From: a virus | Length of the DNA stretch: 49,858 bases | UHGV virus genome: UHGV-0134932 | Strand: one strand, 5' to 3' | In this document: in pieces, positions 1,242 to 49,858 of the stretch | Position numbering within the stretch: the first letter of the stretch is position 1 | Layout of the letters: each line of letters starts with the position of its first letter | Translations under genes and position numbers: made by a program | Notes under the pieces: generated by a model | The model's input: the letters and a program-made list of their open reading frames with translations, nothing else | Database searches by the model: none | Told to the model about the DNA's origin: nothing

Positions 1242-2273
1242 CTAATCGCCATCTTCCAGCAGGCGCACCATTGCCCCTGTTTCACTATCCAGGTTACGGA
1301 TATAGTTCATGACAATATTTACATTGGTCCAGCCACCAGCTTGCATGATCTCCGGTATTGAAACTCCAGCGCGGGCCATATCTCGCGCGGCTCCGACACG
1401 GGCACTGTGTCCAGACCAGGCCAGGTATCTCTGACCAGAGTCATCCTTAGCGCCGTAAATCAATCGATGAGTTGCTTCAAAAATCCCTTCCAGGGCGCGA
1501 GTTGATAGCTGGCTGGTGGCAGATGGCGCGGCAACACCATTTTTTCTGACCCGGCAAAACAGGTAGTTATTAGGATCATCAGCTACACCAGAGACAGAAA
1601 TCCATCGCTCGACCAGTTTAGTTACCCCCAGGCTAAGTGCCTTCTCTACACCTGCGGCGCTAACCAGCGTTTTCGTTCTGCCAATATGGATTAACATTCT
1701 CCCACCGTCAGTACGTGAGATATCTTTAACCCTGATCCTGGCAATTTCTGCTATACGTAGCAGGGTATTATAAGCAATCCCAAGAAATGCCAGATTACGT
1801 ATATCCTGGCAGCGATCGCTATTTTCCATGAGTGAACGAACCTGGTCGAAATCAGTGCGTTCGAACGCCAATGCCTGTTTTGCACGCTCACCGGCATCAA
1901 CGTTTTCTTTTCGGATCCGTCGCATGACCAGTGAAACAGCATTGCTGTCACTTGGTCGTGGCAGCCCGGACCGACGATGAAGCATATTTAGCTGGCCCAA
2001 ATGTTGCTGGATAGTTTTTACTGCCAGACCGCGCGCCTGAAGATATAGAAGATAATCGCGAACATCTTCAGGTTCTGCGGGAAACCATTTCCGGTTATTC
2101 AACTTGCACCATGCCGCCCACGACCGGCAAACGGACAGAAGCATTTTCCAGGTATGCTCAGAAAACGCCTGGCGATCCCTGAACATGTCCATCAGGTTCT
2201 TGCGAACCTCATCACTCGTTGCATCGACCGGTAATGCAGGCAAATTTTGGTGTACGGTCAGTAAATTGGACAT
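1242..2273 (-). CDS. cre: Cre site-specific tyrosine recombinase
   Basis: 343-aa protein beginning MSNLLTVHQNLPALPVDATSDEVRKNLMDMFRDRQAFSEH and ending with the catalytic region (RVGAARDMARAGVSIPEIMQAGGWTNVNIVMNYIRNLDSE); loxP lies about 420 bp upstream. Confidence 0.97.
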   Translation of the reverse strand: MSNLLTVHQNLPALPVDATSDEVRKNLMDMFRDRQAFSEHTWKMLLSVCRSWAAWCKLNNRKWFPAEPEDVRDYLLYLQARGLAVKTIQQHLGQLNMLHRRSGLPRPSDSNAVSLVMRRIRKENVDAGERAKQALAFERTDFDQVRSLMENSDRCQDIRNLAFLGIAYNTLLRIAEIARIRVKDISRTDGGRMLIHIGRTKTLVSAAGVEKALSLGVTKLVERWISVSGVADDPNNYLFCRVRKNGVAAPSATSQLSTRALEGIFEATHRLIYGAKDDSGQRYLAWSGHSARVGAARDMARAGVSIPEIMQAGGWTNVNIVMNYIRNLDSETGAMVRLLEDGD

Positions 2274-3106: not shown

Positions 3107-3316
3107 ATGGCTTTCATTCAACCAACCATCGACGACGTTAGACATTGCTCTAACGCTTTATCTGTAGACCCTGCCGAAACCGACGCTGCCCGCGCCATTG
3201 CTGAACACTACTCAAAGATATCCAATCAGGAGTACCGCATCACCCAAGACGACCTGGATGACCTCACTGACACAATCGAATATCTCATGGCAACTAACCA
3301 GTTAGACTCACAATAA
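3107..3316 (+). CDS. coi: Coi, C1 repressor inactivator
   Basis: 69-aa ORF immediately upstream of c1 on the same strand, the size and position expected for P1 coi. Confidence 0.8.
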   Translation: MAFIQPTIDDVRHCSNALSVDPAETDAARAIAEHYSKISNQEYRITQDDLDDLTDTIEYLMATNQLDSQ

Positions 3317-3332
3317 ATGCACTAATAAATCT
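3316..3332. promoter_or_regulatory. C1 operator-like site between coi and c1, next to a TATAAT -10 element
   Basis: aatgcactaataaatct, 14/17 match; TATAAT at about 3352. Confidence 0.5.
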
Positions 3333-3426: not shown

Positions 3427-4278
3427 ATGATAAATTATGTCTACGGCGAACAACTGTACCAGGAGTTCGTCAGCTTCAGGGATCTCTTTCTAAAAAAAGC
3501 TGTTGCACGCGCCCAACACGTTGATACAGCCAGCGACGGTCGTCCTGTACGCCCGGTTGTCGTTCTACCGTTCAAAGAAACTGACAGCATTCAGGCTGAA
3601 ATTGATAAATGGACTTTAATGGCGCGGGAACTGGAACAGTACCCAGACCTCAATATCCCAAAGACTATTTTATATCCAGTGCCTAACATCCTTCGCGGTG
3701 TGCGCAAGGTTACAACTTATCAGACAGAAGCTGTGAACAGCGTCAACATGACCGCTGGCCGCATTATTCATCTGATTGATAAGGACATTCGCATCCAAAA
3801 AAGCGCGGGGATCAATGAGCACAGTGCGAAATACATAGAGAACCTGGAAGCAACAAAAGAGCTAATGAGGCAGTACCCGGAGGATGAAAAATTCCGTATG
3901 CGCGTACACGGCTTTAGCGAAACAATGCTGCGCGTCCACTACATTTCCAGTAGCCCTAACTACAATGATGGTAAATCAGTTAGTTACCATGTGCCACTGT
4001 GTGGCGTGTTTATCTGCGATGAAACTCTCCGTGATGGAATTATCATCAACGGTGAATTCGAAAAAGCAAAATTTAGCCTTTATGACTCCATAGAACCGAT
4101 CATCTGCGACCGCTGGCCACAAGCAAAAATATATCGCCTGGCAGATATTGAAAATGTAAAAAAACAAATTGCCATCACTCGCGAAGAGAAAAAGGTTAAG
4201 TCAGCCGCATCAGTTACGCGCAGCCGTAAAACCAAGAAGGGGCAGCCAGTAAACGACAACCCCGAAAGCGCACAATAA
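3427..4278 (+). CDS. c1: C1 repressor of lysogeny
   Basis: 283-aa protein (MINYVYGEQLYQEFVSFRDLFLKKAVARAQ...) matching the size and sequence I recall for P1 C1; preceded by coi and operator sites. Confidence 0.92.
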   Translation: MINYVYGEQLYQEFVSFRDLFLKKAVARAQHVDTASDGRPVRPVVVLPFKETDSIQAEIDKWTLMARELEQYPDLNIPKTILYPVPNILRGVRKVTTYQTEAVNSVNMTAGRIIHLIDKDIRIQKSAGINEHSAKYIENLEATKELMRQYPEDEKFRMRVHGFSETMLRVHYISSSPNYNDGKSVSYHVPLCGVFICDETLRDGIIINGEFEKAKFSLYDSIEPIICDRWPQAKIYRLADIENVKKQIAITREEKKVKSAASVTRSRKTKKGQPVNDNPESAQ

Positions 4279-4281
4279 ATT

Positions 4282-4303
4282 ATGCCCGGCATCAACCGGG
4301 CAT
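4282..4303. terminator. Hairpin between convergent c1 and ant (putative bidirectional terminator)
   Basis: Inverted repeat atgcccgg...ccgggcat in the 32-bp gap between the two stop codons. Confidence 0.45.
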
Positions 4304-4310
4304 TCTTCCA

Positions 4311-5423
4311 TTATTCAGCCGCCACCGGTTTTAACAAGCCAGCATCGAGCAGTTTACGCGTCAACCACTGCTGGCCTTTCCCCGTTAATTGAGGCGTCAA
4401 CCGTATCTGGTAGCCATCTTCATCATCCAGCACCACTTCTTTCACCGTGAAATACCCCGCGTTGATGTACTGCTGGAACGGCACATTTTTACGGCCACCG
4501 GACGCTATCAGGATGCCGTTCTCCCGCAACCAGGCAAACAGCGCGTTTTGCTTAAGTCCAACAACCTTTGCAAAATTCCCAATCAGGATCCCTTTAGCTA
4601 CTGATACCCGGTCGGCAAAATCGACTTTAGGAGCGGCGGCCACCAGCTGCTGATTTAGCTGGTGGGCTTTCTGTTCCAGAAGCTGCTTTTGTTCAGCCAG
4701 TTCGGCAGCCAGGCGTAGGGCTTCTGGTAATGTTTGGGGGATTGCAACCGGTTGCTGTTCTTTTTGCCGGAAGTAGCTGTCTTCCAGTTTTTCAAAGAAT
4801 GCCCATGCTTCATTTGTGTCCACGATCTTAGACATGCGTGCAGCGCCGCGCTCTGTCCAGAGTGTAAGGCTTCTGGCGTTCTTACCAACAGAGTAACTTC
4901 CGGTTACTCTGTTCTTAAATTCTCTTAATTTTAAACCAGTTAGAAGAAAGTAATGCTTACCTTCTTCAAAGCGGTCAAGGTTGCGAGACAAATTGTTGCG
5001 AATATTGGCTTCATCGACCCCATACCCTCTAGCAAGAGTTTCGGTTGTCACGACACGTACTCCCTGCCACTCCAGAACGGGAATTTCATCAGGCTGATTT
5101 TGAGCAACCACCAGCTCCGATTCCTGAACTGAAGGTGCATGAATTTTTTCTGATTTAACGTTAGTTGCTTTCATTCTGTGAGCCTCCTTGCGTGCTTCGG
5201 CTGCGACGGTTGCGTAATTCAGATGACCCTGTTCGAGCAGGTATTCGCGGATATCAGACAACAGAATGCGGTGAACCGCGTTCTTGTCCTTTCTCCGGTA
5301 AAGTTGTTTGGTGATCATGAAGTAGTTGGCAATAACGCCTGGTATATCTCTGGTGCTGATACAGGCAGTGTGCTGTTCAATTGCCTCAATCATTTCTTCA
5401 CGGGTGACTAATGACGTTCTCAT
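4311..5423 (-). CDS. ant: Phage antirepressor with N-terminal Bro-N/ORF6N-like and C-terminal KilAC/Ant-like regions; an in-frame internal Met would give a shorter Ant2-like product
   Basis: 370 aa; size fits P1 Ant1 (about 42 kDa) and the internal Met near residue 84 fits an Ant2-sized product; start overlaps the stop of a 73-codon icd-like ORF. Confidence 0.7.
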   Translation of the reverse strand: MRTSLVTREEMIEAIEQHTACISTRDIPGVIANYFMITKQLYRRKDKNAVHRILLSDIREYLLEQGHLNYATVAAEARKEAHRMKATNVKSEKIHAPSVQESELVVAQNQPDEIPVLEWQGVRVVTTETLARGYGVDEANIRNNLSRNLDRFEEGKHYFLLTGLKLREFKNRVTGSYSVGKNARSLTLWTERGAARMSKIVDTNEAWAFFEKLEDSYFRQKEQQPVAIPQTLPEALRLAAELAEQKQLLEQKAHQLNQQLVAAAPKVDFADRVSVAKGILIGNFAKVVGLKQNALFAWLRENGILIASGGRKNVPFQQYINAGYFTVKEVVLDDEDGYQIRLTPQLTGKGQQWLTRKLLDAGLLKPVAAE

Positions 5424-5641
5424 ACTCCCTCCTGAGCAGAAGCGTTAACAGGGAGGCACCAGTAACTGAGAGAATTGCGCGAATCAGTAGAAAAACGGGC
5501 GGAGAAAATGCAGGGTGCATCAGGAAGCTGAGAGCGAGCCTCATCTTCTGTCGGTGCAATAACGAAGTGATAGTGACGTTTCTGGCAGGAATAAAAGCGC
5601 CAGATAAATTCAGGGTGAGTTGGGGTAGGGATAGTAGCCAT
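5420..5641 (-). CDS. icd: Icd-like small protein (73 aa) translationally coupled to ant
   Basis: 73 codons; stop overlaps the ant ATG; AAGGAGG RBS; architecture of the P1 immI icd-ant pair. Confidence 0.55.
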   Translation of the reverse strand: MATIPTPTHPEFIWRFYSCQKRHYHFVIAPTEDEARSQLPDAPCIFSARFSTDSRNSLSYWCLPVNASAQEGV

Positions 5642-5825
5642 AATGGCAGCCTCCTTTTGCTAACTTAAGGAGCTACCGCGTGAGGTTCCAATCTCAATGG
5701 CGGTAGCACTGACTGGGTTGGAACTACCGGCGCAAAAGGGAACCGGCCTGCCTTTCGGCAGCCCAGCCAGCACTACCATTGATCTCGGAGCTATGTGCTA
5801 CGTATGGCTGTGCGATGGCATGACA

Positions 5826-5975
5826 CAAAAAAAGACGCTTTTGGCGTCTGTGTCGCCTTTTGCATTATCCGGGGTTCCAATCCCGGCACCCGTTTTAATG
5901 AGGTGCCTGATAAGCATAAACCGAAAATGCCTCAAGGCGCAAGAGGTCAGGCTCAATGTAACATCGGCAGTTAAA
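5826..5975 (-). ncRNA. Candidate c4-like antisense regulatory RNA and leader between the Op51-like operator and icd
   Basis: Non-coding stretch downstream of a C1 operator on the minus strand; hairpin plus U7 terminator at 5826-5848; 10-nt motif GAUUGGAACC present both in this segment and just upstream of the icd RBS, with a near-complementary AGUUCCAACC in the leader. Confidence 0.3.
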
Positions 5976-5979
5976 AAAC

Positions 5980-5996
5980 ACAATTTATTAGAGCAA
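5980..5996. promoter_or_regulatory. C1 operator (Op51-like) controlling the c4/icd/ant unit
   Basis: cAATTTATTAGAGCAAa, 15/17 match. Confidence 0.75.
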
Positions 5997-6000
5997 ATAT

Positions 6001-7485
6001 TCATTCATTAAGCCATGCCAGAGCTTCATCAACCTGCGCTTCGTCTTCGACGCTAAGCACTTCATCCTGGGGAACATAGTTCGCCAACATAGCGAAACAA
6101 TATGTATCCCAATGGTCCGGTGAGTGCAGGTTGAGTTTTTTCTTCATATCTTCCTTTGACATCACTTTCCATTGACCTGCGGAATTTATCCCTACCGGTA
6201 TCTTTGATGCTTCCTCTATAGTCGCAGCCCCCTTATCAAGCCGCATACGCCCTGATTTTACAGCTTCTGCCGCCTGAATATTCGCGAAAGCGCGCATATC
6301 GAAATAAAGGCTTTTATCTTCACGGCTGTGCATCTTTTTACCCCAGCGGATACGCTGGACGGTAATACCATAGCGTTCGTACATCAGATCAGCCGTCGAT
6401 TTCCCCAAGCCATCGCCATCAATAGCTATGGTTATGTTCGGGAACCGTTCTGGGTTACATTCTGCGAAAATCTTGGCGGCTAACTGCGTTTCTGTAACGT
6501 CTGTGTATTCCAGCATACGATAGTTGATTACACGGCGTTTATTTCGCTGGCCGGACACCATCATGATATTAATAACGGACTTATCTCGTCCTGTGCCACC
6601 AGCAACATCAACACATGCAACCCAGCCCCATCCTTTGGCAATCTTGACCTTTCGCCGCGTTGCACGTTCAACCTCATCACGTCCAAGAAGGAAGCCATCC
6701 TGTGATTTAGGGAATAGGCCGCGTACCTTAATCATGTACATAGGGTTATCACGCCCGCCGTACTCCGCCAGCTTCATTTTGATAAATGCTGGCGTTACCA
6801 GCGGTGATTCCTCACTGTTAAGCGTGATCGCCGTATAAACGCCATCAGGGTTACCAGGACGCTTGGCCAGTTTATGGTGTGTATCGTAGAAATAGCCGCT
6901 TGGGCGTGTAGGCTGTGACAGTAATAAGATGCGGTTATCCTGTCCGGTAAGAGCACCGGTGATGATACCGAAAGCTCTATCACTGACACCGGAGGCTTCA
7001 TCGATAATATACAGAAGATGATCTGCGTGTTCACCGGCGAGAGCTTCTTCACTTCCCAGACGAAAGCCCTTCGGTACTACAGTCCATACACCTTTACCAG
7101 TAACCTCATAGAAAGCGGTTTCTGTCAGAACAAAATAATCAGCAAGCCATGGGAAACGGCTGGTGGCAGTAGCCCAGTTTATCTTGATGTACTTGAATAT
7201 ACCGGTCATTACCTGCTGAATTTTGTTCGCAACGATAATGGCGCGGGCACCGGGATACATGATTATGAACAACATGATCATGATAGAAGTCATGTCTGAT
7301 TTCCCGGTACCGTGACCAGACGAAACAGATGTCTTGCTACCCTGTTCCTGAACAGACTCAATAATCAGATCCTGCTGCCAGGTAGGTGTTTTGCCGAACA
7401 AAACATCAGCGGCCGCAATCCAGTCATAACGATATAGCGCCACCAGCTCGCGCCAACGTGGATCCGTTACGCAACTTCTGGCCAT
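6001..7485 (-). CDS. pacB: PacB, large terminase/pacase subunit
   Basis: 494-aa protein directly downstream of pacA; Walker A-like GHGTGKSD and an acidic DE-containing stretch typical of terminase ATPase/nuclease domains. Confidence 0.88.
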
Positions 7486-8678
7486 TAATCATCATCCCCG
7501 TACAGTTTGCGGGTAACTTCTTCATCTTCCTCCTCGTCTTCGTCCAGCTCCTGTTCAAGCCATGCTTCGTTTGATATGCCTTCCGCATCGACATCACCAT
7601 AACCACCTGTATCGACGATATCGGCAATTTCTTCTCTACGATGCTCAATCCACAATGCGGCATCAGCGCGGCGGCTGGCGGCCCGTTCTCGCGCAACTTT
7701 GTCCAGATCTTCAAGAGAAGGGCCACCGACGGCAGTTTGCCTTTCCTCATCATCGGCATTTGTCTTAGGAGCACGCAGATCGGCTTTGATTTGCTCCAGC
7801 ATCAGGGGCGGCACTTTCCCTCCATGCGCCTCGATGAATTCAGCCGCTTCCAGCACTGACCAGTTATTTTCACGCTTTCGTTCGTATGCCAGCTTAACAA
7901 TGCCAGCTTGCCCCATAGACAAAGCGTGCTTTTCCGCCTCCCGGCTTTCTTTTCGATAGTTATTCCGGATGCTGTAAATGGTGTTGATCAGGCTGCTTAT
8001 CTGCGCGGAACAGCTGTTTAGCATGCTCGCGATACGGTATTCAGGCGGAGTACCTTCATCATCGTCTTTTTGCTGATCGCGCATTTCCTGCACCAGGCGA
8101 ATACACGTATCCCGGGCGTTCTCCAGCATAAGGAGATGAGAAAGAGACTTTTCCAGAAGAGTGGTTTCCAGAACATCAGCTCCGGAACGACGCAACATAG
8201 CGCGCGCGGCCTTCCGCGCTTCAACGTTATCTATCAGGTAATCGCCAGCTTCGAATTCAAAGCGTTCACCATCATCATCCAGGGTGTCGCGTTCCAGGCG
8301 ATCACGTAAGGTCCGGTGGGCACGGGTGATCACGTCATGATCATCTGAACGATCATTTATGCGCTTATTTTGGCGCTTAGCGTTCTCGACTGCGGCACTG
8401 ACAACAGCATTAACTCTTTGTTTTTCCGCTATTTCAGCCGCAATGTGATCACCTGCATGTTGATCATTAGAGTGATCAATGATCATGCTTTTTAGTGGCT
8501 TCCTGACTGGCTTATTTGGCTTGCGGCTGTCCGCTGTCCTGGTGTCTTCTTTGAAGGCACGGAGATAACGACGTGCAGTATTAGGGTTAAGATTAAACTC
8601 GGCGGCATACTGTGCGATGGTGTAACCACCATCTCGCGCCAGGCGAGCAAAATTCTTCTTGTGATCGTCCCAGGTCAC
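7485..8678 (-). CDS. pacA: PacA, small pacase subunit; contains the pac site
   Basis: 397-aa protein with N-terminal DNA-binding-like region and an acidic C-terminus; the pac hexamer cluster lies inside its coding sequence. Confidence 0.88.
8327..8485. other. pac: pac packaging site: two clusters of TGATCA/G hexamers (Dam GATC sites) flanking the cleavage region
   Basis: Hexamers at 8327, 8338, 8351 (left) and 8446, 8461, 8473, 8480 (right), all containing GATC. Confidence 0.85.
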
Positions 8679-44178: not shown

Positions 44179-45906
44179 TTGTGTTTAAGGAAGAGTAAAT
44201 TGAGTAACTTACGCGAATACCAGAATCGTATTGCAGATATCGCAAAACGCTCTAAAGCTGTGCTTGGCTGGGCAAGCACTGCGCAGTTCGGTACTGATAA
44301 CCAATTCATTAAAGATGATGCCGCGCGTGCCGCATCTATCCTTGAAGCTGCACGTAAAGACCCGGTTTTTGCGGGTATCTCTGATAATGCCACCGCTCAA
44401 ATCGCTACAGCGTGGGCAAGTGCACTGGCTGACTACGCCGCAGCACATAAATCTATGCCGCGTCCGGAAATTCTGGCCTCCTGCCACCAGACGCTGGAAA
44501 ACTGCCTGATTGAGTCCACCCGCAATAGCATGGATGCCACTAATAAAGCGATGCTGGAATCCGTCGCAGCAGAGATGATGAGCGTTTCTGACGGTGTTAT
44601 GCGTCTGCCTTTATTCCTCGCGATGATCCTGCCTGTTCAGTTGGGGGCAGCTACCGCTGATGCGTGTACCTTCATTCCGGTTACGCGTGACCAGTCCGAC
44701 ATCTATGAAGTCTTTAACGTGGCAGGTTCCTCTTTTGGTTCTTATGCTGCTGGTGATGTTCTGGACATGCAATCCGTCGGTGTGTACAGCCAGTTACGTC
44801 GCCGCTATGTGCTGGTGGCAAGCTCCGATGGCACTAGCAAAACCGCAACCTTCAAGATGGAAGCCTTCGAAGGCCAGAATGTACCAATCCGAAAAGGTCG
44901 CACTAACATCTACGTTAACCGTATTAAGTCTGTTGTTGATAACGGTTCCGGCAGCCTACTTCACTCGTTTACTAATGCTGCTGGTGAGCAAATCACTGTT
45001 ACCTGCTCTCTGAACTACAACATTGGTCAGATTGCCCTGTCGTTCTCCAAAGCGCCGGATAAAGGCACTGAGATCGCAATTGAGACGGAAATCAATATTG
45101 AAGCCGCTCCTGAGCTGATCCCGCTGATCAACCACGAAATGAAGAAATACACCCTGTTCCCAAGTCAGTTCGTTATCGCGGCTGAGCACACGGTACAGGC
45201 GGCGTATGAAGCACAGCGTGAATTTGGTCTGGACCTGGGTTCCCTACAGTTCCGCACCCTGAAGGAATACCTGTCTCATGAACAGGATATGCTGCGTCTT
45301 CGCATCATGATCTGGCGCACTCTTGCGACCGACACCTTTGACATCGCTCTGCCGGTTAACCAGTCCTTTGATGTATGGGCAACCATCATTCGTGGCAAAT
45401 TCCAGACTGTATATCGCGACATTATTGAGCGCGTTAAATCTTCTGGTGCGATGGGGATGTTTGCTGGTGCTGATGCAGCATCTTTCTTCAAACAGTTGCC
45501 GAAGGATTTCTTCCAGCCAGCCGAAGACTATATCCAGACTCCGTATGTTCACTACATCGGTACCCTGTTCGGTAACGTGAAAGTGTACGAAGTACCTGCT
45601 GGTATTTGTAAGAACTTAACGACAGAGAACATTCAGTTCAGCTCGATGGATGTGCTGTGCTACGTCCGTGATGAAAATCCGGGTAAAGCAGGCTTCGTGA
45701 CTGGTGATGCTGTCCCGGCTATCCCGTTCCAGCATCCGACCACTCCGGCGCTGGTCAACCGTACCACACTGTGGGGTTCGGCTATCAACGATATGCACCC
45801 ACGCAACGGCGCTGATTACTTCACTCGTGTAACGCTGACAATGGCCAAAAAAGGCGGGCTTAACTTTATAAGCGGCGACACGATTGATGCCGGTGACTCT
45901 GAGTAA
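44179..45906 (+). CDS. Putative major head protein precursor (P1 gene 23-like); likely TTG start at 44200 after AAGGAAGAG
   Basis: 575-aa ORF next to parS; assignment by position and size only. Confidence 0.45.
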   Translation: MCLRKSKLSNLREYQNRIADIAKRSKAVLGWASTAQFGTDNQFIKDDAARAASILEAARKDPVFAGISDNATAQIATAWASALADYAAAHKSMPRPEILASCHQTLENCLIESTRNSMDATNKAMLESVAAEMMSVSDGVMRLPLFLAMILPVQLGAATADACTFIPVTRDQSDIYEVFNVAGSSFGSYAAGDVLDMQSVGVYSQLRRRYVLVASSDGTSKTATFKMEAFEGQNVPIRKGRTNIYVNRIKSVVDNGSGSLLHSFTNAAGEQITVTCSLNYNIGQIALSFSKAPDKGTEIAIETEINIEAAPELIPLINHEMKKYTLFPSQFVIAAEHTVQAAYEAQREFGLDLGSLQFRTLKEYLSHEQDMLRLRIMIWRTLATDTFDIALPVNQSFDVWATIIRGKFQTVYRDIIERVKSSGAMGMFAGADAASFFKQLPKDFFQPAEDYIQTPYVHYIGTLFGNVKVYEVPAGICKNLTTENIQFSSMDVLCYVRDENPGKAGFVTGDAVPAIPFQHPTTPALVNRTTLWGSAINDMHPRNGADYFTRVTLTMAKKGGLNFISGDTIDAGDSE

Positions 45907-45966
45907 TCACGGGAAGTTATCCGTTTAACATAGCGCCCCCGTGCGGGGCGCATAACAGGGAAAGTT

Positions 45967-47556
45967 ATGTCTCAATATTCAATTCAACAGTCATTAGGTA
46001 ATGCATCCGGCGTCGCGGTTAGCCCGATCAATGCCGATGCGACGTTATCTACCGGTGTTGCATTAAATAGCAGCTTATGGGCTGGTATTGGCGTATTTGC
46101 GCGTGGCAAGCCGTTTACTGTTCTTGCGGTTACTGAGTCCAATTACGAAGATGTTCTCGGCGAACCGCTGAAGCCGTCTTCCGGCTCACAGTTCGAACCA
46201 ATTCGCCATGTGTACGAAGCTATTCAGCAAACGTCTGGTTATGTTGTCCGTGCTGTTCCGGATGATGCGAAGTTCCCGATTATTATGTTCGATGAATCAG
46301 GCGAACCGGCTTACAGTGCGTTGCCATACGGTTCTGAAATTGAACTTGATAGCGGCGAAGCCTTTGCTATCTACGTTGATGATGGTGATCCGTGTATTTC
46401 ACCTACCCGTGAGTTAACCATCGAAACGGCAACAGCGGACAGCGCGAGTAATGAACGCTTCATCTTAAAACTGACCCAGACGACTTCGCTTGGTGTGGTA
46501 ACGACCCTGGAGACACACACTGTGTCTTTGGCGGAAGAAGCGAAAGATGACATGGGCCGCTTGTGTTATCTGCCTACGGCTCTGGAAGCTCGTTCTAAAT
46601 ATCTGCGCGCGGTTGTTAATGAAGATCTGATTTCTACAGCGAAAGTAACAAACAAAAAATCGTTGGCGTTCACTGGTGGTACCAACGGTGATCAGTCGAA
46701 AATCTCAACCGCTGCGTACCTGCGTGCGGTGAAAGTGCTGAACAATGCGCCGTACATGTACACCGCTGTTCTTGGCCTGGGCTGCTATGACAATGCGGCT
46801 ATCACCGCATTAGGTAAAATCTGTGCAGATCGCCTGATTGATGGCTTCTTTGATGTCAAACCGACATTAAGGTACGCAGAAGCACTAACAGCTGTTGAGG
46901 GTACCGGTTTACTTGGTACCGATTATGTAAGCTGTTCTGTCTATCACTACCCGTTCTCCTGCAAAGACAAATGGACCCAATCCCGTGTGGTCTTTGGTCT
47001 GTCTGGCGTGGCGTATGCGGCGAAAGCTCATGGCGTCAAGAAAAACTCTGATGTCGGCGGTTGGCATTACTCACCGGCTGGTGAAGAACGTGCCGTCATT
47101 GCTCGTGCGTCAATTCAACCGCTGTATCCGGAAGATACCCCGGACGAAGAAGCAATGGTCAAGGGCCGTCTCAATAAAGTATCTGTTGGCACCTCTGGCC
47201 AGATGATCATCGACGATGCTTTAACTTGCTGCACGCAGGATAACTATCTGCACTTCCAGCACGTCCCATCCCTGATGAATGCAATCAGCCGTTTCTTTGT
47301 CCAGTTAGCCCGACAGATGAAGCATAGCCCGGACGGTATTACTGCGGCTGGCCTGACTAAAGGGATGACCAAACTTTTAGATCGCTTTGTCGCCTCCGGC
47401 GCTCTGGTGGCTCCTCGTGATCCCGATGCTGACGGTACAGAACCGTATGTGCTGAAAGTTACGCAGGCGGAATTCGATAAATGGGAAGTAGTCTGGGCCT
47501 GCTGCCCGACTGGCGTAGCCCGTCGTATCCAGGGCGTACCGCTGCTTATTAAGTAA
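45967..47556 (+). CDS. Putative contractile tail sheath protein (P1 gene 22-like)
   Basis: 529 aa; size and position; weak pattern resemblance to myovirus sheath proteins. Confidence 0.45.
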   Translation: MSQYSIQQSLGNASGVAVSPINADATLSTGVALNSSLWAGIGVFARGKPFTVLAVTESNYEDVLGEPLKPSSGSQFEPIRHVYEAIQQTSGYVVRAVPDDAKFPIIMFDESGEPAYSALPYGSEIELDSGEAFAIYVDDGDPCISPTRELTIETATADSASNERFILKLTQTTSLGVVTTLETHTVSLAEEAKDDMGRLCYLPTALEARSKYLRAVVNEDLISTAKVTNKKSLAFTGGTNGDQSKISTAAYLRAVKVLNNAPYMYTAVLGLGCYDNAAITALGKICADRLIDGFFDVKPTLRYAEALTAVEGTGLLGTDYVSCSVYHYPFSCKDKWTQSRVVFGLSGVAYAAKAHGVKKNSDVGGWHYSPAGEERAVIARASIQPLYPEDTPDEEAMVKGRLNKVSVGTSGQMIIDDALTCCTQDNYLHFQHVPSLMNAISRFFVQLARQMKHSPDGITAAGLTKGMTKLLDRFVASGALVAPRDPDADGTEPYVLKVTQAEFDKWEVVWACCPTGVARRIQGVPLLIK

Positions 47557-47565
47557 GGGAATACA

Positions 47566-48381
47566 ATGAGCAAAAACTTTTTTCAATCCGGGGCATTTTT
47601 GGGGAATGGACTGTCCCGTTTCGCTTTGAACTCTGATCCTGTGCAGCTGATGGAGTCTGCCCGAGCAAGCGCCGAACCGCCAACAGATCCGGTTATTAAT
47701 AATAATCCGGAACCGGCGGCACAGACTAACGATAATGTTCCATCTGATCCGGCTCCTGAGCAAATCCTGGAAGGGAAAGATGGTAAAGAATGGACCGTCG
47801 AACAGGCGCACCAGATGATTCTGGAAGCTGCAAATCGAAGTGCTATGCAGAATGCGTTGAGTGATGCGGCCGACGCCGTTTTCTCCTGGGCTGATAGCGG
47901 TGATCTGACTTTCGACTCCCTTGATGGTTTCGTTCAGGCTATCGCTGGTATCTCTGATGACGACGACTCCGAAGTTACAGAAGAACAGGACGATGCCTAT
48001 AACGAAGCATGGGCAAATGTTGCTGACTTCCTCGCAGCATGCGGTGTAGATGATGACCTGATCGAAGCACTGGCTGACGATGAAGACGACGACGCTGCTG
48101 CTGATGTTGGTGCCTCTATCGCTGGTTTAGATAGCGACGACCGCGACGAACTGGAAGCGGCGTTTGTTGTTGCTGGCACTTCTGATGAAATGCTGACTGA
48201 AGCATTTAAGAAGGTTGTTCGTAACGGTGAGATCAAACTCATCCGTAAACGCCTGCGTAAAAAACGTCTGACTGCGGCTCAAAAATCGGCGCTGAAAAAA
48301 GCGCGTCGAAAAGCCCAGACCGGCGCGGCAAAACTTGCCCGCAAAAAGTCAATGAAACTGCGCCGTAAGCGCCTTGGCTAA
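47566..48381 (+). CDS. Acidic protein with highly basic C-terminal tail
   Basis: 271-aa ORF; D/E-rich body, C-terminal KKARRKAQTGAAKLARKKSMKLRRKRLG. Confidence 0.5.
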   Translation: MSKNFFQSGAFLGNGLSRFALNSDPVQLMESARASAEPPTDPVINNNPEPAAQTNDNVPSDPAPEQILEGKDGKEWTVEQAHQMILEAANRSAMQNALSDAADAVFSWADSGDLTFDSLDGFVQAIAGISDDDDSEVTEEQDDAYNEAWANVADFLAACGVDDDLIEALADDEDDDAAADVGASIAGLDSDDRDELEAAFVVAGTSDEMLTEAFKKVVRNGEIKLIRKRLRKKRLTAAQKSALKKARRKAQTGAAKLARKKSMKLRRKRLG

Positions 48382-48416
48382 AGGAGGAGGCCGGAGAACT
48401 CCGGCCTTTAACTTGA

Positions 48417-48998
48417 ATGGCACCTATACCTTATGGGGTTTACAGCCAGGCTGACGGTGTATCGCCATTTCTGAAAGTTACTTTAACGAACTCTCAGTAC
48501 CAGGTTACCGGATATATCAGCCAGGGGGCAGCAATGAACATGGCCCAGAATTGGGAAGCGCCGTTTACCGGTATGTCCATGGGGTCTGTTGCTGGTGCTT
48601 TCAGTGGTTTTGCGCAGGTTGGTACTGAAACAACGTCGGTGGCCCGTTGGAACAGCTTAATGGTTTGGGAGGGGGGAACACCGCCGACTTTCACGCTGCC
48701 AGTAACTTTCATCGCTTTGTTTGACCCATTCACGGAGGTTTCAGGAGCTATCGCCGCATTGTCAGCGATGATTAGCCCGGAACTTAAAGATGCCAGCATT
48801 GGTGGTCGAATCCCGGAGCGTGTGACGCTAAACATTGGTCGCCGGATCAACATCATTGATGTCGCTATCCAGGACATAAGTTTCGATCTCGATGCGCCCA
48901 GGGACAGCAATGGGCATTTCCTGAAAAACACCGTCAACCTCCAGTTGACCGGTTCTTCGATATATAACAGCTCCGATATTGTTCGGGCGTTCCAGTAA
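48417..48998 (+). CDS. Putative tail tube protein (P1 gene 21-like)
   Basis: 193 aa; size and position next to the sheath candidate. Confidence 0.4.
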   Translation: MAPIPYGVYSQADGVSPFLKVTLTNSQYQVTGYISQGAAMNMAQNWEAPFTGMSMGSVAGAFSGFAQVGTETTSVARWNSLMVWEGGTPPTFTLPVTFIALFDPFTEVSGAIAALSAMISPELKDASIGGRIPERVTLNIGRRINIIDVAIQDISFDLDAPRDSNGHFLKNTVNLQLTGSSIYNSSDIVRAFQ

Positions 48999-49009
48999 AA
49001 GGATCTTAT

Positions 49010-49519
49010 ATGGGGCACAATAACACTAAGGGAAACCGTAAATTTATTAAGGGCCGCTATACTGCCAACGCGGCCAAAGGCGAACGACTGGTATCTTCTG
49101 AATTCCAGCTCACTTTTGCAGGCTATGAAGATATCAGTGTACTTGTTCGTACGTCGCAAATCCCTGAAATGACTCGCGAGGATGTGGAGGACTATGGTCC
49201 GAATGGTGTGAAGTTCAACCAGCACGGTCCAATTCGAAACTCTGGGGAAATCCAGGTTCAGTGCGTGGAGACTATCGAAGGCGATATTCTTCAGTTCATT
49301 AAGGATCGCATTGCGGCGAAGGACTATGTTGATATCACGATGGCTGCTACCCCTGAATCCAAATCTTCCGGGGTTAACGCTGTGACAAAAGCTGCTACAA
49401 CAATTGAAATGTTGGACTGCAAAATCTACAGTGATGCAATCGACTTTAGTACCGAAGATGTGACTGCCGCTGTGCGCCCGTCACTTCGTATCGTCTACAA
49501 CTGGATTGAGTGGGATTAA
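49010..49519 (+). CDS. Hypothetical structural-block protein
   Basis: 169-aa ORF followed by a strong terminator. Confidence 0.5.
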   Translation: MGHNNTKGNRKFIKGRYTANAAKGERLVSSEFQLTFAGYEDISVLVRTSQIPEMTREDVEDYGPNGVKFNQHGPIRNSGEIQVQCVETIEGDILQFIKDRIAAKDYVDITMAATPESKSSGVNAVTKAATTIEMLDCKIYSDAIDFSTEDVTAAVRPSLRIVYNWIEWD

Positions 49520-49538
49520 GAGTCATCCCTTGTATTTT

Positions 49539-49564
49539 AAAGCTCCTTCGGGAGCTTTTTTATT
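49539..49564 (+). terminator. Rho-independent terminator
   Basis: aaagctccttcgggagcttt hairpin followed by tttttatttgg. Confidence 0.6.
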
Positions 49565-49623: not shown

Positions 49624-49858
49624 CATAAGCGCTAACTTAAGGGTTGTGGTATTACGCCTGATATGATTTAACGTGCCGATGAATTACTCTCACGATAACT
49701 GGTCAGCAATTCTGGCCCATATTGGTAAGCCCGAAGAACTGGATACTTCGGCACGTAATGCCGGGGCTCTAACCCGCCGCCGCGAAATTCGTGATGCTGC
49801 AACTCTGCTACGTCTGGGGCTGGCTTACGGCCCCGGGGGGATGTCATTACGTGAAGTC
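49624..49858 (+). mobile_element. Left end of an IS186-like (IS4 family) insertion sequence, truncated by the window edge
   Basis: Terminal repeat-like cataagcgctaacttaagggttg about 55 bp upstream of a transposase start; preceded by GC-rich ggcggggatctccc. Confidence 0.7.
49679..49858 (+). CDS. IS186-type transposase, N-terminal 60 codons (partial)
   Basis: MNYSHDNWSAILAHIGKPEELDTSARNAGALTRRREIRDAATLLRLGLAYGPGGMSLREV. Confidence 0.7.
   Translation, partial: MNYSHDNWSAILAHIGKPEELDTSARNAGALTRRREIRDAATLLRLGLAYGPGGMSLREV

Follow-up and report, generated by a model that had tools for sequence, protein, structure and literature searches.

Open reading frames (ORFs) and database matches identify the source of the window analysed here, a 49,858-nucleotide (nt) stretch of DNA catalogued as UHGV virus genome UHGV-0134932, as a P1-like phage-plasmid. 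Between its terminase gene pacB and the gene for its C1 repressor lies an insert that carries, all on the minus strand, a predicted C1 operator, a leader encoding two RNAs, icd and an antirepressor gene, ant, that converges on c1 (Table 1). In the P1 reference (AF234172), the stop codons of c1 and pacB are 24 bp apart and the c4–icd–ant1/ant2 genes are found at 48.1–49.7 kb, directly upstream of kilA–repL (the block with kilA–repL spanning 48.1–51.6 kb). Homology of the window to P1 is lost right after the c1 stop codon (4278) and regained at about 5995–6000; a segment of 1.72 kb (4279 to about 6000) therefore stands in for the 24-bp spacer. We propose that this segment is probably a complete second immI-type immunity module of the phage-plasmid, working through an antisense RNA code of its own. 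Its position is between pacB and c1, not between sim and kilA–repL, and within the insert no kilA or repL follows ant. A GC-rich hairpin in the spacer between ant and c1 is probably a terminator shared by the two converging genes. Neither direct repeats nor a transposase were found in the junction sequences of the insert; the difference from P1 may reflect either a gain or a loss.

A predicted C1-controlled operator lies at the first promoter of the module, and the two together can be aligned with Op51/P51a of P1. This promoter, Pa, was assigned by visual comparison with the aligned, annotated region of P1 and agrees with the consensus at 7 of 12 positions; its −35 element overlaps the operator, as annotated for P1 P51a. 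A second putative promoter, Pb, would put the +1 position near G5906, where the Rfam match to IsrK begins, and a promoter-like pair is found equally far upstream of the conserved GCACC/ACACC 5′ end in D6, phiP27 and Shiga toxin (Stx) phages. Because a strict σ70 consensus scan of 4200–6100 called no leader promoter, neither Pa nor Pb, both were assigned through homology to P1 P51a and the geometry conserved in homologues. Operator-like sites recur throughout the window, which has 13 in all against 0.23 expected by chance (up to 3 mismatches to the consensus; 731–37829). They include an overlapping inverted pair at 34280–34307 and sites in the immC region at 2769–2785, 2852–2868 and 3316–3332, and this scatter fits a normal P1-type C1 regulon.

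The leader encodes an IsrK-type RNA that ends in a Rho-independent terminator, followed by a C4 antisense RNA. The a′ and b′ segments of C4 are exact complements of a2 and b2 in the downstream target region, and b2 lies on the ribosome-binding site of icd. Upstream of C4, the a1 and b1 sequences are also present, yet the region that holds them matches isrK (RF01394) and not the c4-a1b1 motif (RF03163) that canonical modules match. The corresponding loops of P1 C4, a′ (CTGTCAA) and b′ (TCACTAAC), have their complements in a1/b1 upstream and a2/b2 downstream of c4, and the AF234172 annotation lists Op51, a1/b1, c4 and a2/b2 (“repression of icd ant translation”).

The stop codon of icd overlaps the start codon of ant as ATGA (5423–5420), a predicted translational coupling, and an in-frame start nested in ant1 would yield a shorter Ant2, as in P1, where Ant2 starts at the same codon position (Met84) behind AAAGGAGG in the same Shine–Dalgarno context. 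AF234172 annotates icd as “required for expression of ant” and lists an Ant1/Ant2/C1 complex. Ant of the window is 57% identical to P1 Ant1 overall (BLASTP). Its N-terminal 84 and C-terminal approximately 145 residues resemble P1 Ant1, the C-terminal part being highly conserved, and an ORF6N domain (PF10543, E = 2.5e-18) replaces the middle; the C-terminal match is to ANT/KilAC (PF03374, E = 1.5e-31). In the domain comparison, P1 Ant1 has the ANT domain only, and KilA shares ANT/KilAC. Pfam found no Bro-N domain in Ant, and NCBIfam gave no model match for this protein. Homology to P1 Ant1 suggests that Ant of the window would bind and inactivate C1; because the middle domain differs and ANT/KilAC is shared with KilA, however, C1 is only its presumed target.

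Most of this anatomy had been outlined in a preliminary description of the same DNA, which placed an antirepressor module between pacB and c1, convergent with c1 and without kilA or repL downstream; the gene layout agrees, and the parts then listed fall at, or within 1 base of, the positions assigned to them. Its account of P1, in which pacB adjoins immC and c4–icd–ant lies elsewhere beside kilA–repL, matches the alignment to AF234172, where icd and ant are absent from the pacB–c1 junction. The Op51-like operator (two mismatches, aligned with P1 Op51), the c4-like RNA, the 73-codon icd-like ORF and the internal Met for a shorter isoform all correspond to the assignments in Table 1. A hidden Markov model search of the 370-residue protein, which had been suggested for Bro-N and KilAC/ANT domains, recovered the antirepressor-type ANT/KilAC domain, with ORF6N where Bro-N had been considered. 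The IsrK-family RNA within what had been called a non-coding leader is absent from that earlier list.

Table 1 Features of the pacB–c1 insert and neighbouring genes in the window
Feature	Position	Strand	Basis and remarks
C1 operator, Op51-like (TTTGCTCTAATAAATTG)	5981-5997	-	Predicted; 15/17 match to P1 consensus ATTGCTCTAATAAATTT; starts 4 nt past pacB stop
Promoter Pa, putative counterpart of P1 P51a (P2c4)	5955-5983	-	-35 TTGTGT 5983-5978, 17-nt spacer, -10 TACATT 5960-5955
Promoter Pb, putative, presumed constitutive	5913-5942	-	-35 TTGCGC, 18-nt spacer, -10 TATGCT
IsrK-type leader RNA	5826-5906	-	Rfam RF01394 at 5906-5828, 62.4 bits (gathering score 50)
a1 (TTGGAAC)	5880-5874	-	In loop of second IsrK hairpin (predicted fold)
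b1 (GCAAAAGG)	5863-5856	-	In single-stranded stretch of IsrK-type RNA (predicted fold)
Intrinsic terminator of leader RNA	stem 5849-5833, T7 5832-5826	-	Terminator scan
C4 antisense RNA gene	5783-5696	-	Rfam RF01695, full-length model, 76.7 bits (gathering score 45)
b′ (CCTTTTGC)	5739-5732	-	Hairpin loop of C4 RNA
a′ (GTTCCAA)	5724-5718	-	C4 RNA
C4 target region on icd–ant mRNA	5650-5691	-	Exact complements of a′ and b′
a2 (TTGGAAC)	5691-5685	-	Downstream of C4
b2 (GCAAAAGG)	5660-5653	-	Overlaps icd Shine–Dalgarno AAGGAGG 5656-5650
icd, 73 codons	5420-5641	-	NCBIfam phage_ICD_like; 79% identical to P1 Icd
ant1, 370 codons	4311-5423	-	Pfam ANT/KilAC, residues 258-359; ORF6N, residues 116-200
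ant2, putative, 287 codons	4311-5174	-	In-frame Met84, ATG 5174-5172; AAGGAGG 5189-5183, 8 nt upstream
GC-rich hairpin (ATGCCCGG-N6-CCGGGCAT)	4282-4303		Terminator-like site, minus strand; in 32-bp ant/c1 spacer
c1 repressor gene, left flank of insert	3427-4278	+	NCBIfam phage_rep_C1, 612 bits
pacB terminase gene, right flank of insert	6001-7485	-	Matches annotated pacB of P1, RCS47, JL22
pacA	7485-8678	-	ORF and match
coi	3107-3316	+	ORF and match
cre	1242-2273	-	ORF and match

The same insert, in the same position and gene order, is found in JL22 (97.7% identity), RCS47 (96.4%) and vB_EcoM-673R5 (91.7%), and in pTZ20_1P as well (range 91–98%). In PLSDB, 292 plasmids carry it, several of them with 100% identity over 2.7 kb, as do 301 of 5,426 complete Escherichia coli genomes. 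The insertion is common and has already been noticed, and as an observation the arrangement is neither rare nor new: Venturini et al. (2019) mention in a single sentence an ant gene and “two short hypothetical orfs” at the pacB–c1 junction, comparing RCS47, whose record annotates the insert simply as “ant”. That paper and the records of RCS47, pTZ20_1P, JL22 and vB_EcoM-673R5 describe protein genes only, with C4, the IsrK RNA and the operator unannotated. On a second immI in P1-like phages, the literature search gave that one mention only, and we found no earlier account of the operator or RNAs of the insert; subscription papers (the RCS47 and D6 genomes and the classic immI work) were outside the search, and a prior description is possible.

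All four insert-bearing relatives examined (JL22, RCS47, pHNSHP24-3 and p204A1-114K) keep the canonical c4-a1b1/C4/icd/ant1-2/kilA/repL block, and in each of them Rfam places C4 and the c4-a1b1 motif at the canonical site. pHNSHP24-3 is 100% identical to the window over 2.7 kb and p204A1-114K is the closest relative overall (98% coverage, 97.7% identity in PLSDB); the best RefSeq E. coli matches cover 96–98%. Because the four relatives carry both modules, the insert is read as a second immI, and we infer from them that it stands alongside the canonical one in the window's own element as well. NZ_CP122848.1 and CP057381.1 are identical to the tail of the window and do not have the insert; by such comparisons the window's element is a mosaic.

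The proteins of the module are under purifying selection. The ratio of nonsynonymous to synonymous substitution rates (dN/dS) is 0.05 for ant (against JL22) and 0.02–0.08 for icd; nearly all copies have an intact icd, and ant encodes 370–372 residues in 18 of 23 complete copies, a minority having a shortened ant (254, 80 or 10 codons). At least three ORF6N variants occur at the pacB–c1 locus, plus one recombinant with a P1-type middle: on IMG/VR contig L053, the second-site ant has 344 codons and the canonical P1-type middle (QTLLKMVNEARKLCGEP...), an apparent recombinant of both ant paralogues. On another IMG/VR contig, L037, two copies of the pacB end, operator and leader lie 1,566 bp apart, either a tandem duplication or an assembly artefact. 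In phi456 (OR339795.1; locus L009, 4912–6030), IS1 truncates the second-site ant, of which the C-terminal 110 codons are left; also lacking are pacB, pacA, lpa and part of pdcB, through an insertion sequence (IS)-mediated deletion that begins within the second module.

As judged by alignment, the segment is a mosaic of a P1-type operator and promoter, a D6/lambdoid-type IsrK–C4 leader, and P1-type icd and ant with a swapped ORF6N middle. The stretch 5950–5459, comprising Pb, IsrK, C4 and the 5′ part of icd, has 84% nt identity to the immI of D6 and about 70% to the leaders of phiP27 and Stx phages, the rest of icd and the Ant N terminus being about 71% identical to P1 at the nt level and the Ant C terminus 82%. 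The module resembles P1/P7 immI in the C1 operator that overlaps the first promoter, in the a′/b′ loops of C4, whose targets lie both upstream of C4 and at the ribosome-binding site of icd, in the 73-codon icd coupled to ant through ATGA, and in the Ant2 start at Met84 and the ANT/KilAC C terminus. It differs in that the upstream targets belong to an IsrK-type RNA (RF01394) that has a terminator of its own, whereas those of P1 lie in c4-a1b1 (RF03163), in its location at pacB–c1 rather than at sim/kilA–repL, in recognition sequences that do not cross-pair in silico, and in the ORF6N middle of Ant.

Because Rfam finds isrK, C4 and c4-a1b1 there, the isrK–orf45–anrP region of Gifsy-1 (Hershko-Shalev et al. 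2016; PMC4825925) shares this architecture, with an IsrK RNA and terminator, a C4-family RNA about 25–45 nt further on and then an antirepressor. On the minus strand of NC_010392.1, isrK is matched at 34316–34240 (79.3 bits) and C4 at 34214–34131 (69 bits), 25 nt downstream, and a c4-a1b1 match at 34329–34277 (48.1 bits) overlaps IsrK. From these matches, IsrK resembles a leader with a1 and b1 in a C4-type immunity module, whose C4 RNA orf45/STnc1160 seems to be. In Gifsy-1, IsrK supplied in trans turns on translation of the downstream antirepressor, and orf45, whose frame spans the C4 region, is reportedly translated, with coupling to anrP; the authors raise a possible sequestration of the downstream processed RNA by IsrK and discuss only the P4 CI analogy (PMC4825925). 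Gifsy-1 differs from the window in having no icd, no C1 operator and another antirepressor. The coupling also differs, as the 39-codon frame of the window (5779–5660) ends 18 nt before icd, and it is icd that is the ant-coupled gene.

D6 has the same b specificity as the window and the a specificity of the second module of JL22, but it lacks the segment with the C1 operator and Pa, and it encodes an unrelated antirepressor of the Rha type; a Rha-family gene also comes immediately after the leader in some Stx phages. Lambdoid prophages commonly have the IsrK-plus-C4 layout, and both RNAs are annotated in one Stx-phage record. The C4 region is also about 70% similar at the nt level to the CI/“ash” region of P4, whose immunity (CI RNA, seqA/seqC) likewise involves a processed leader RNA that pairs with sites upstream and downstream of itself. 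P4 CI differs in acting through premature transcription termination and in controlling replication genes rather than an antirepressor (summarized in PMC4825925).

The RNA genes overlap several annotated or potential reading frames. RefSeq (PGAP) calls the 39-codon frame at 5660–5779 (minus strand) an “ash family protein” coding sequence in identical plasmids, and the frame matches Pfam Phage_ASH (PF10554, 32.4 bits against a cutoff of 26); it lies almost wholly within the C4 RNA gene, ends in b2 and corresponds in position to orf45 of Gifsy-1. Because this frame lies within the C4 gene, the Ash protein family may, at least in part, consist of translated C4/CI-type RNA genes, and the routine labelling of a C4 RNA gene as an “ash family protein” is an annotation problem. 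Two longer ORFs over the RNAs, of 68 codons (5798–6004, minus strand) and 104 codons (5697–6011, plus strand), have no Pfam or NCBIfam match and are taken as non-coding. In phiP27, Ayreon and Stx1_132418 (loci L017, L020 and L021, at about 1660–1860 of each), long annotated coding sequences labelled “transcriptional regulator”, “immunity region” and “antirepressor Ant” cross the Rfam C4/isrK matches, which points either to gene starts annotated too far upstream or to RNA genes that lie inside coding sequence.

Recognition sites were compared across 15 modules: three at the second site, five of the canonical P1 type, six from lambdoid phages and that of D6. In all 15, a1, a′ and a2 agree three-way, as do b1, b′ and b2, partly by means of G–U pairs, and each module has its own a and b sequences. 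In a matrix of duplex energies, calculated with a crude model that ignores RNA structure, every C4 has its strongest value on the diagonal: C4 of the window scores −20.9 kcal/mol on its own targets versus −7.8 kcal/mol on canonical targets, and canonical C4s score −4.5 to −7.5 kcal/mol on the targets of the window versus about −19.6 to −20 kcal/mol on their own. Off-diagonal energies among the lambdoid modules are partly sizeable. In this model the code of the window's module is clearly separate from those of the canonical P1-type modules.

A scan of IMG/VR with the sequence of the pacB end plus operator returned 36 loci, and the 35 leaders that could be read represent four (a′, b′) alleles, in each of which a1, a2, b1 and b2 match. 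The most frequent combines a′ AAGGCCAA with the b′ loop TACCTTGGACG (21 copies), followed by a′ AGTCTCAA with either TCCCTTTTGCG (8 copies) or TCCCTTTGACG (4 copies), and a′ AGTTCCAA with TCCCTTTTGCG; this last, window-type allele (a′ GTTCCAA) is the rarest (2 of 35). The second modules of JL22 and vB_EcoM-673R5 carry alleles other than that of the window. The 366-nt leaders of the window allele and the AGTCTCAA/TCCCTTTGACG allele differ by 20 substitutions, of which 12 are within the 45 recognition nt, an enrichment with a binomial P of about 6e-7. An earlier account of the IsrK-type leader, the orthogonal specificity or at least four three-way-compensated alleles was not found in a search that left much of the older P1 literature outside.

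We propose a working model in which RNA processing, the translational block, Ant–C1 binding and the consequence for heteroimmunity are taken from P1, P4 and Gifsy-1. In a lysogen, C1 on the operator would keep Pa off, and transcription from Pb would yield a short IsrK-like RNA that stops at the terminator and, by read-through, a C4 precursor. The a′ and b′ loops of mature C4 would pair with a2 and b2 on the mRNA, covering the icd ribosome-binding site, such that icd and, through the ATGA coupling, ant1 and ant2 would go untranslated; a1 and b1 in the IsrK-like RNA could titrate C4 or let C4 influence termination of the leader. If C1 is lost, or if the DNA enters a cell without a matching C4, transcripts would outrun C4, Icd and Ant would be made, and Ant would inactivate C1. 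Since C4 and the targets of the window do not match those of canonical P1-type modules, the element would have two independent immunity specificities, and an incoming copy would be silenced only by a resident prophage that supplies both matching C4 RNAs. The heteroimmunity of P1 and P7 has been ascribed to small immI differences (PMC6906374), and by the same logic an incoming element may escape a resident that lacks either matching C4.

Several points weigh against this interpretation. The promoters are weak consensus matches (7 of 12) that the strict scan did not call, and the middle of Ant differs from that of P1 Ant, ANT/KilAC being present in KilA as well. The energy model is crude, and the C4 of an Stx1 phage scores −19.1 kcal/mol on the targets of the window. 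Allele swaps could reflect recombination rather than selection for new specificity. The window also ends at about P1 53.1 kb, some 3.4 kb before the canonical site, which is compatible with a relocated immI, in which the insert would be the sole c4–icd–ant module of the element and the canonical copy beside kilA–repL would have been lost. A few records with a single matching place, such as NZ_AP027418.1 and NZ_CP139810.1, point the same way, as does the description by Venturini et al. of pSvP1 with a modified immI and icd–ant homologues elsewhere. We nevertheless regard relocation as improbable, given the presence of both modules in all four insert-bearing relatives and of a second matching place, assumed to be the canonical ant, in 38 of the 40 top PLSDB hits. 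Thus, of the relocated, second or lineage-specific immI that the preliminary description had envisaged, a second immI is supported by relatives with both modules and a relocated one is not; for the coupling of antirepressor control to immC by position, adjacency is the sole basis, the predicted operator being the demonstrable link to C1.

The target of Ant is the subject of another alternative, in which the ORF6N-bearing protein would act mainly on something other than C1, such as the repressor of a co-resident lambdoid prophage or, directly, DNA, and the module would couple derepression of the P1-like element to other elements or, through Icd, to host physiology. Consistent with such a role are the leader and the beginning of icd, for which D6 and the lambdoid Stx/phiP27 modules are the closest relatives, the swapped middle of Ant with its at least three variants and the homologous Gifsy-1 module, which drives an antiterminator and growth arrest (PMC4825925). 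It is nonetheless unlikely in view of the P1-Ant-like N-terminal 84 and C-terminal approximately 145 residues, the retained Ant1/Ant2 nesting, the C1 operator at the promoter and the occurrence of the module, among the PLSDB hits, on P1-like plasmids beside c1. A decaying duplicate or hitch-hiking remnant with no present function would account for the minority of copies with a short ant and for the IS1-truncated copy in phi456. Because of purifying selection (dN/dS 0.02–0.08) and the intactness of the ORFs in most copies, however, such a remnant is very unlikely, and the matching of the three recognition sites in every allele and the carriage of the module by 301 complete E. coli genomes also speak against it. 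The computed part of the case, comprising anatomy, complementarity, orthogonality in silico, co-variation and purifying selection, is what we set behind the preferred reading of a complete second immI-type module.

A broader and more tentative suggestion, which we consider possible but would not favour over its negation, is that the pacB–c1 junction of P1-like phage-plasmids is a polymorphic second immunity-specificity locus that serves as an immunity-breaking or kin-discrimination device, with the IsrK-type leader as a C4 decoy. An incoming element would make Ant, derepressing itself and the resident, unless the resident has the same allele; the orthogonal set of C4s and targets, of at least four alleles, would be kept self-consistent by three-way compensatory change; and competition among mutually incompatible plasmids would drive the turnover of alleles.

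Positions 30000–49561 of the window are collinear with P1 72964–53412 and include repA, parAB and genes 23, 22 and 21. Three tRNA genes on the minus strand (31959–32031, 33475–33547 and 33553–33625; Rfam, 64.7–74.5 bits) are presumably the P1 tRNA set. The last approximately 230 bases (49625–49858) depart from P1 homology just past bplB and, by comparison with the closest relatives, run into an IS421 of the IS4 family, at which the window ends and which occupies the position of P1 pmgF. In several relatives, a hok/sok toxin–antitoxin locus (Rfam sok, 112 bits) replaces P1 pmgF, rlfB and rlfA.

In E. coli and Salmonella, P1-like phage-plasmids often bear genes for resistance and virulence, and the entry, coexistence and displacement of these elements depend on the C1/C4/Ant immunity circuit. 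Every part of the module described here belongs to a known kind, and its practical importance is modest; its main value is the orthogonal, polymorphic RNA code, with the implications that this has for the immunity groups of P1-like plasmids. At this locus, moreover, two systems meet that have been the subject of separate experiments, c4–icd–ant of P1 and IsrK–AnrP of Salmonella. If the proposed working is true for the approximately 5% of complete E. coli genomes concerned, the classical two-type heteroimmunity of P1 and P7 would be too simple, and immunity groups would be combinations of two RNA codes.

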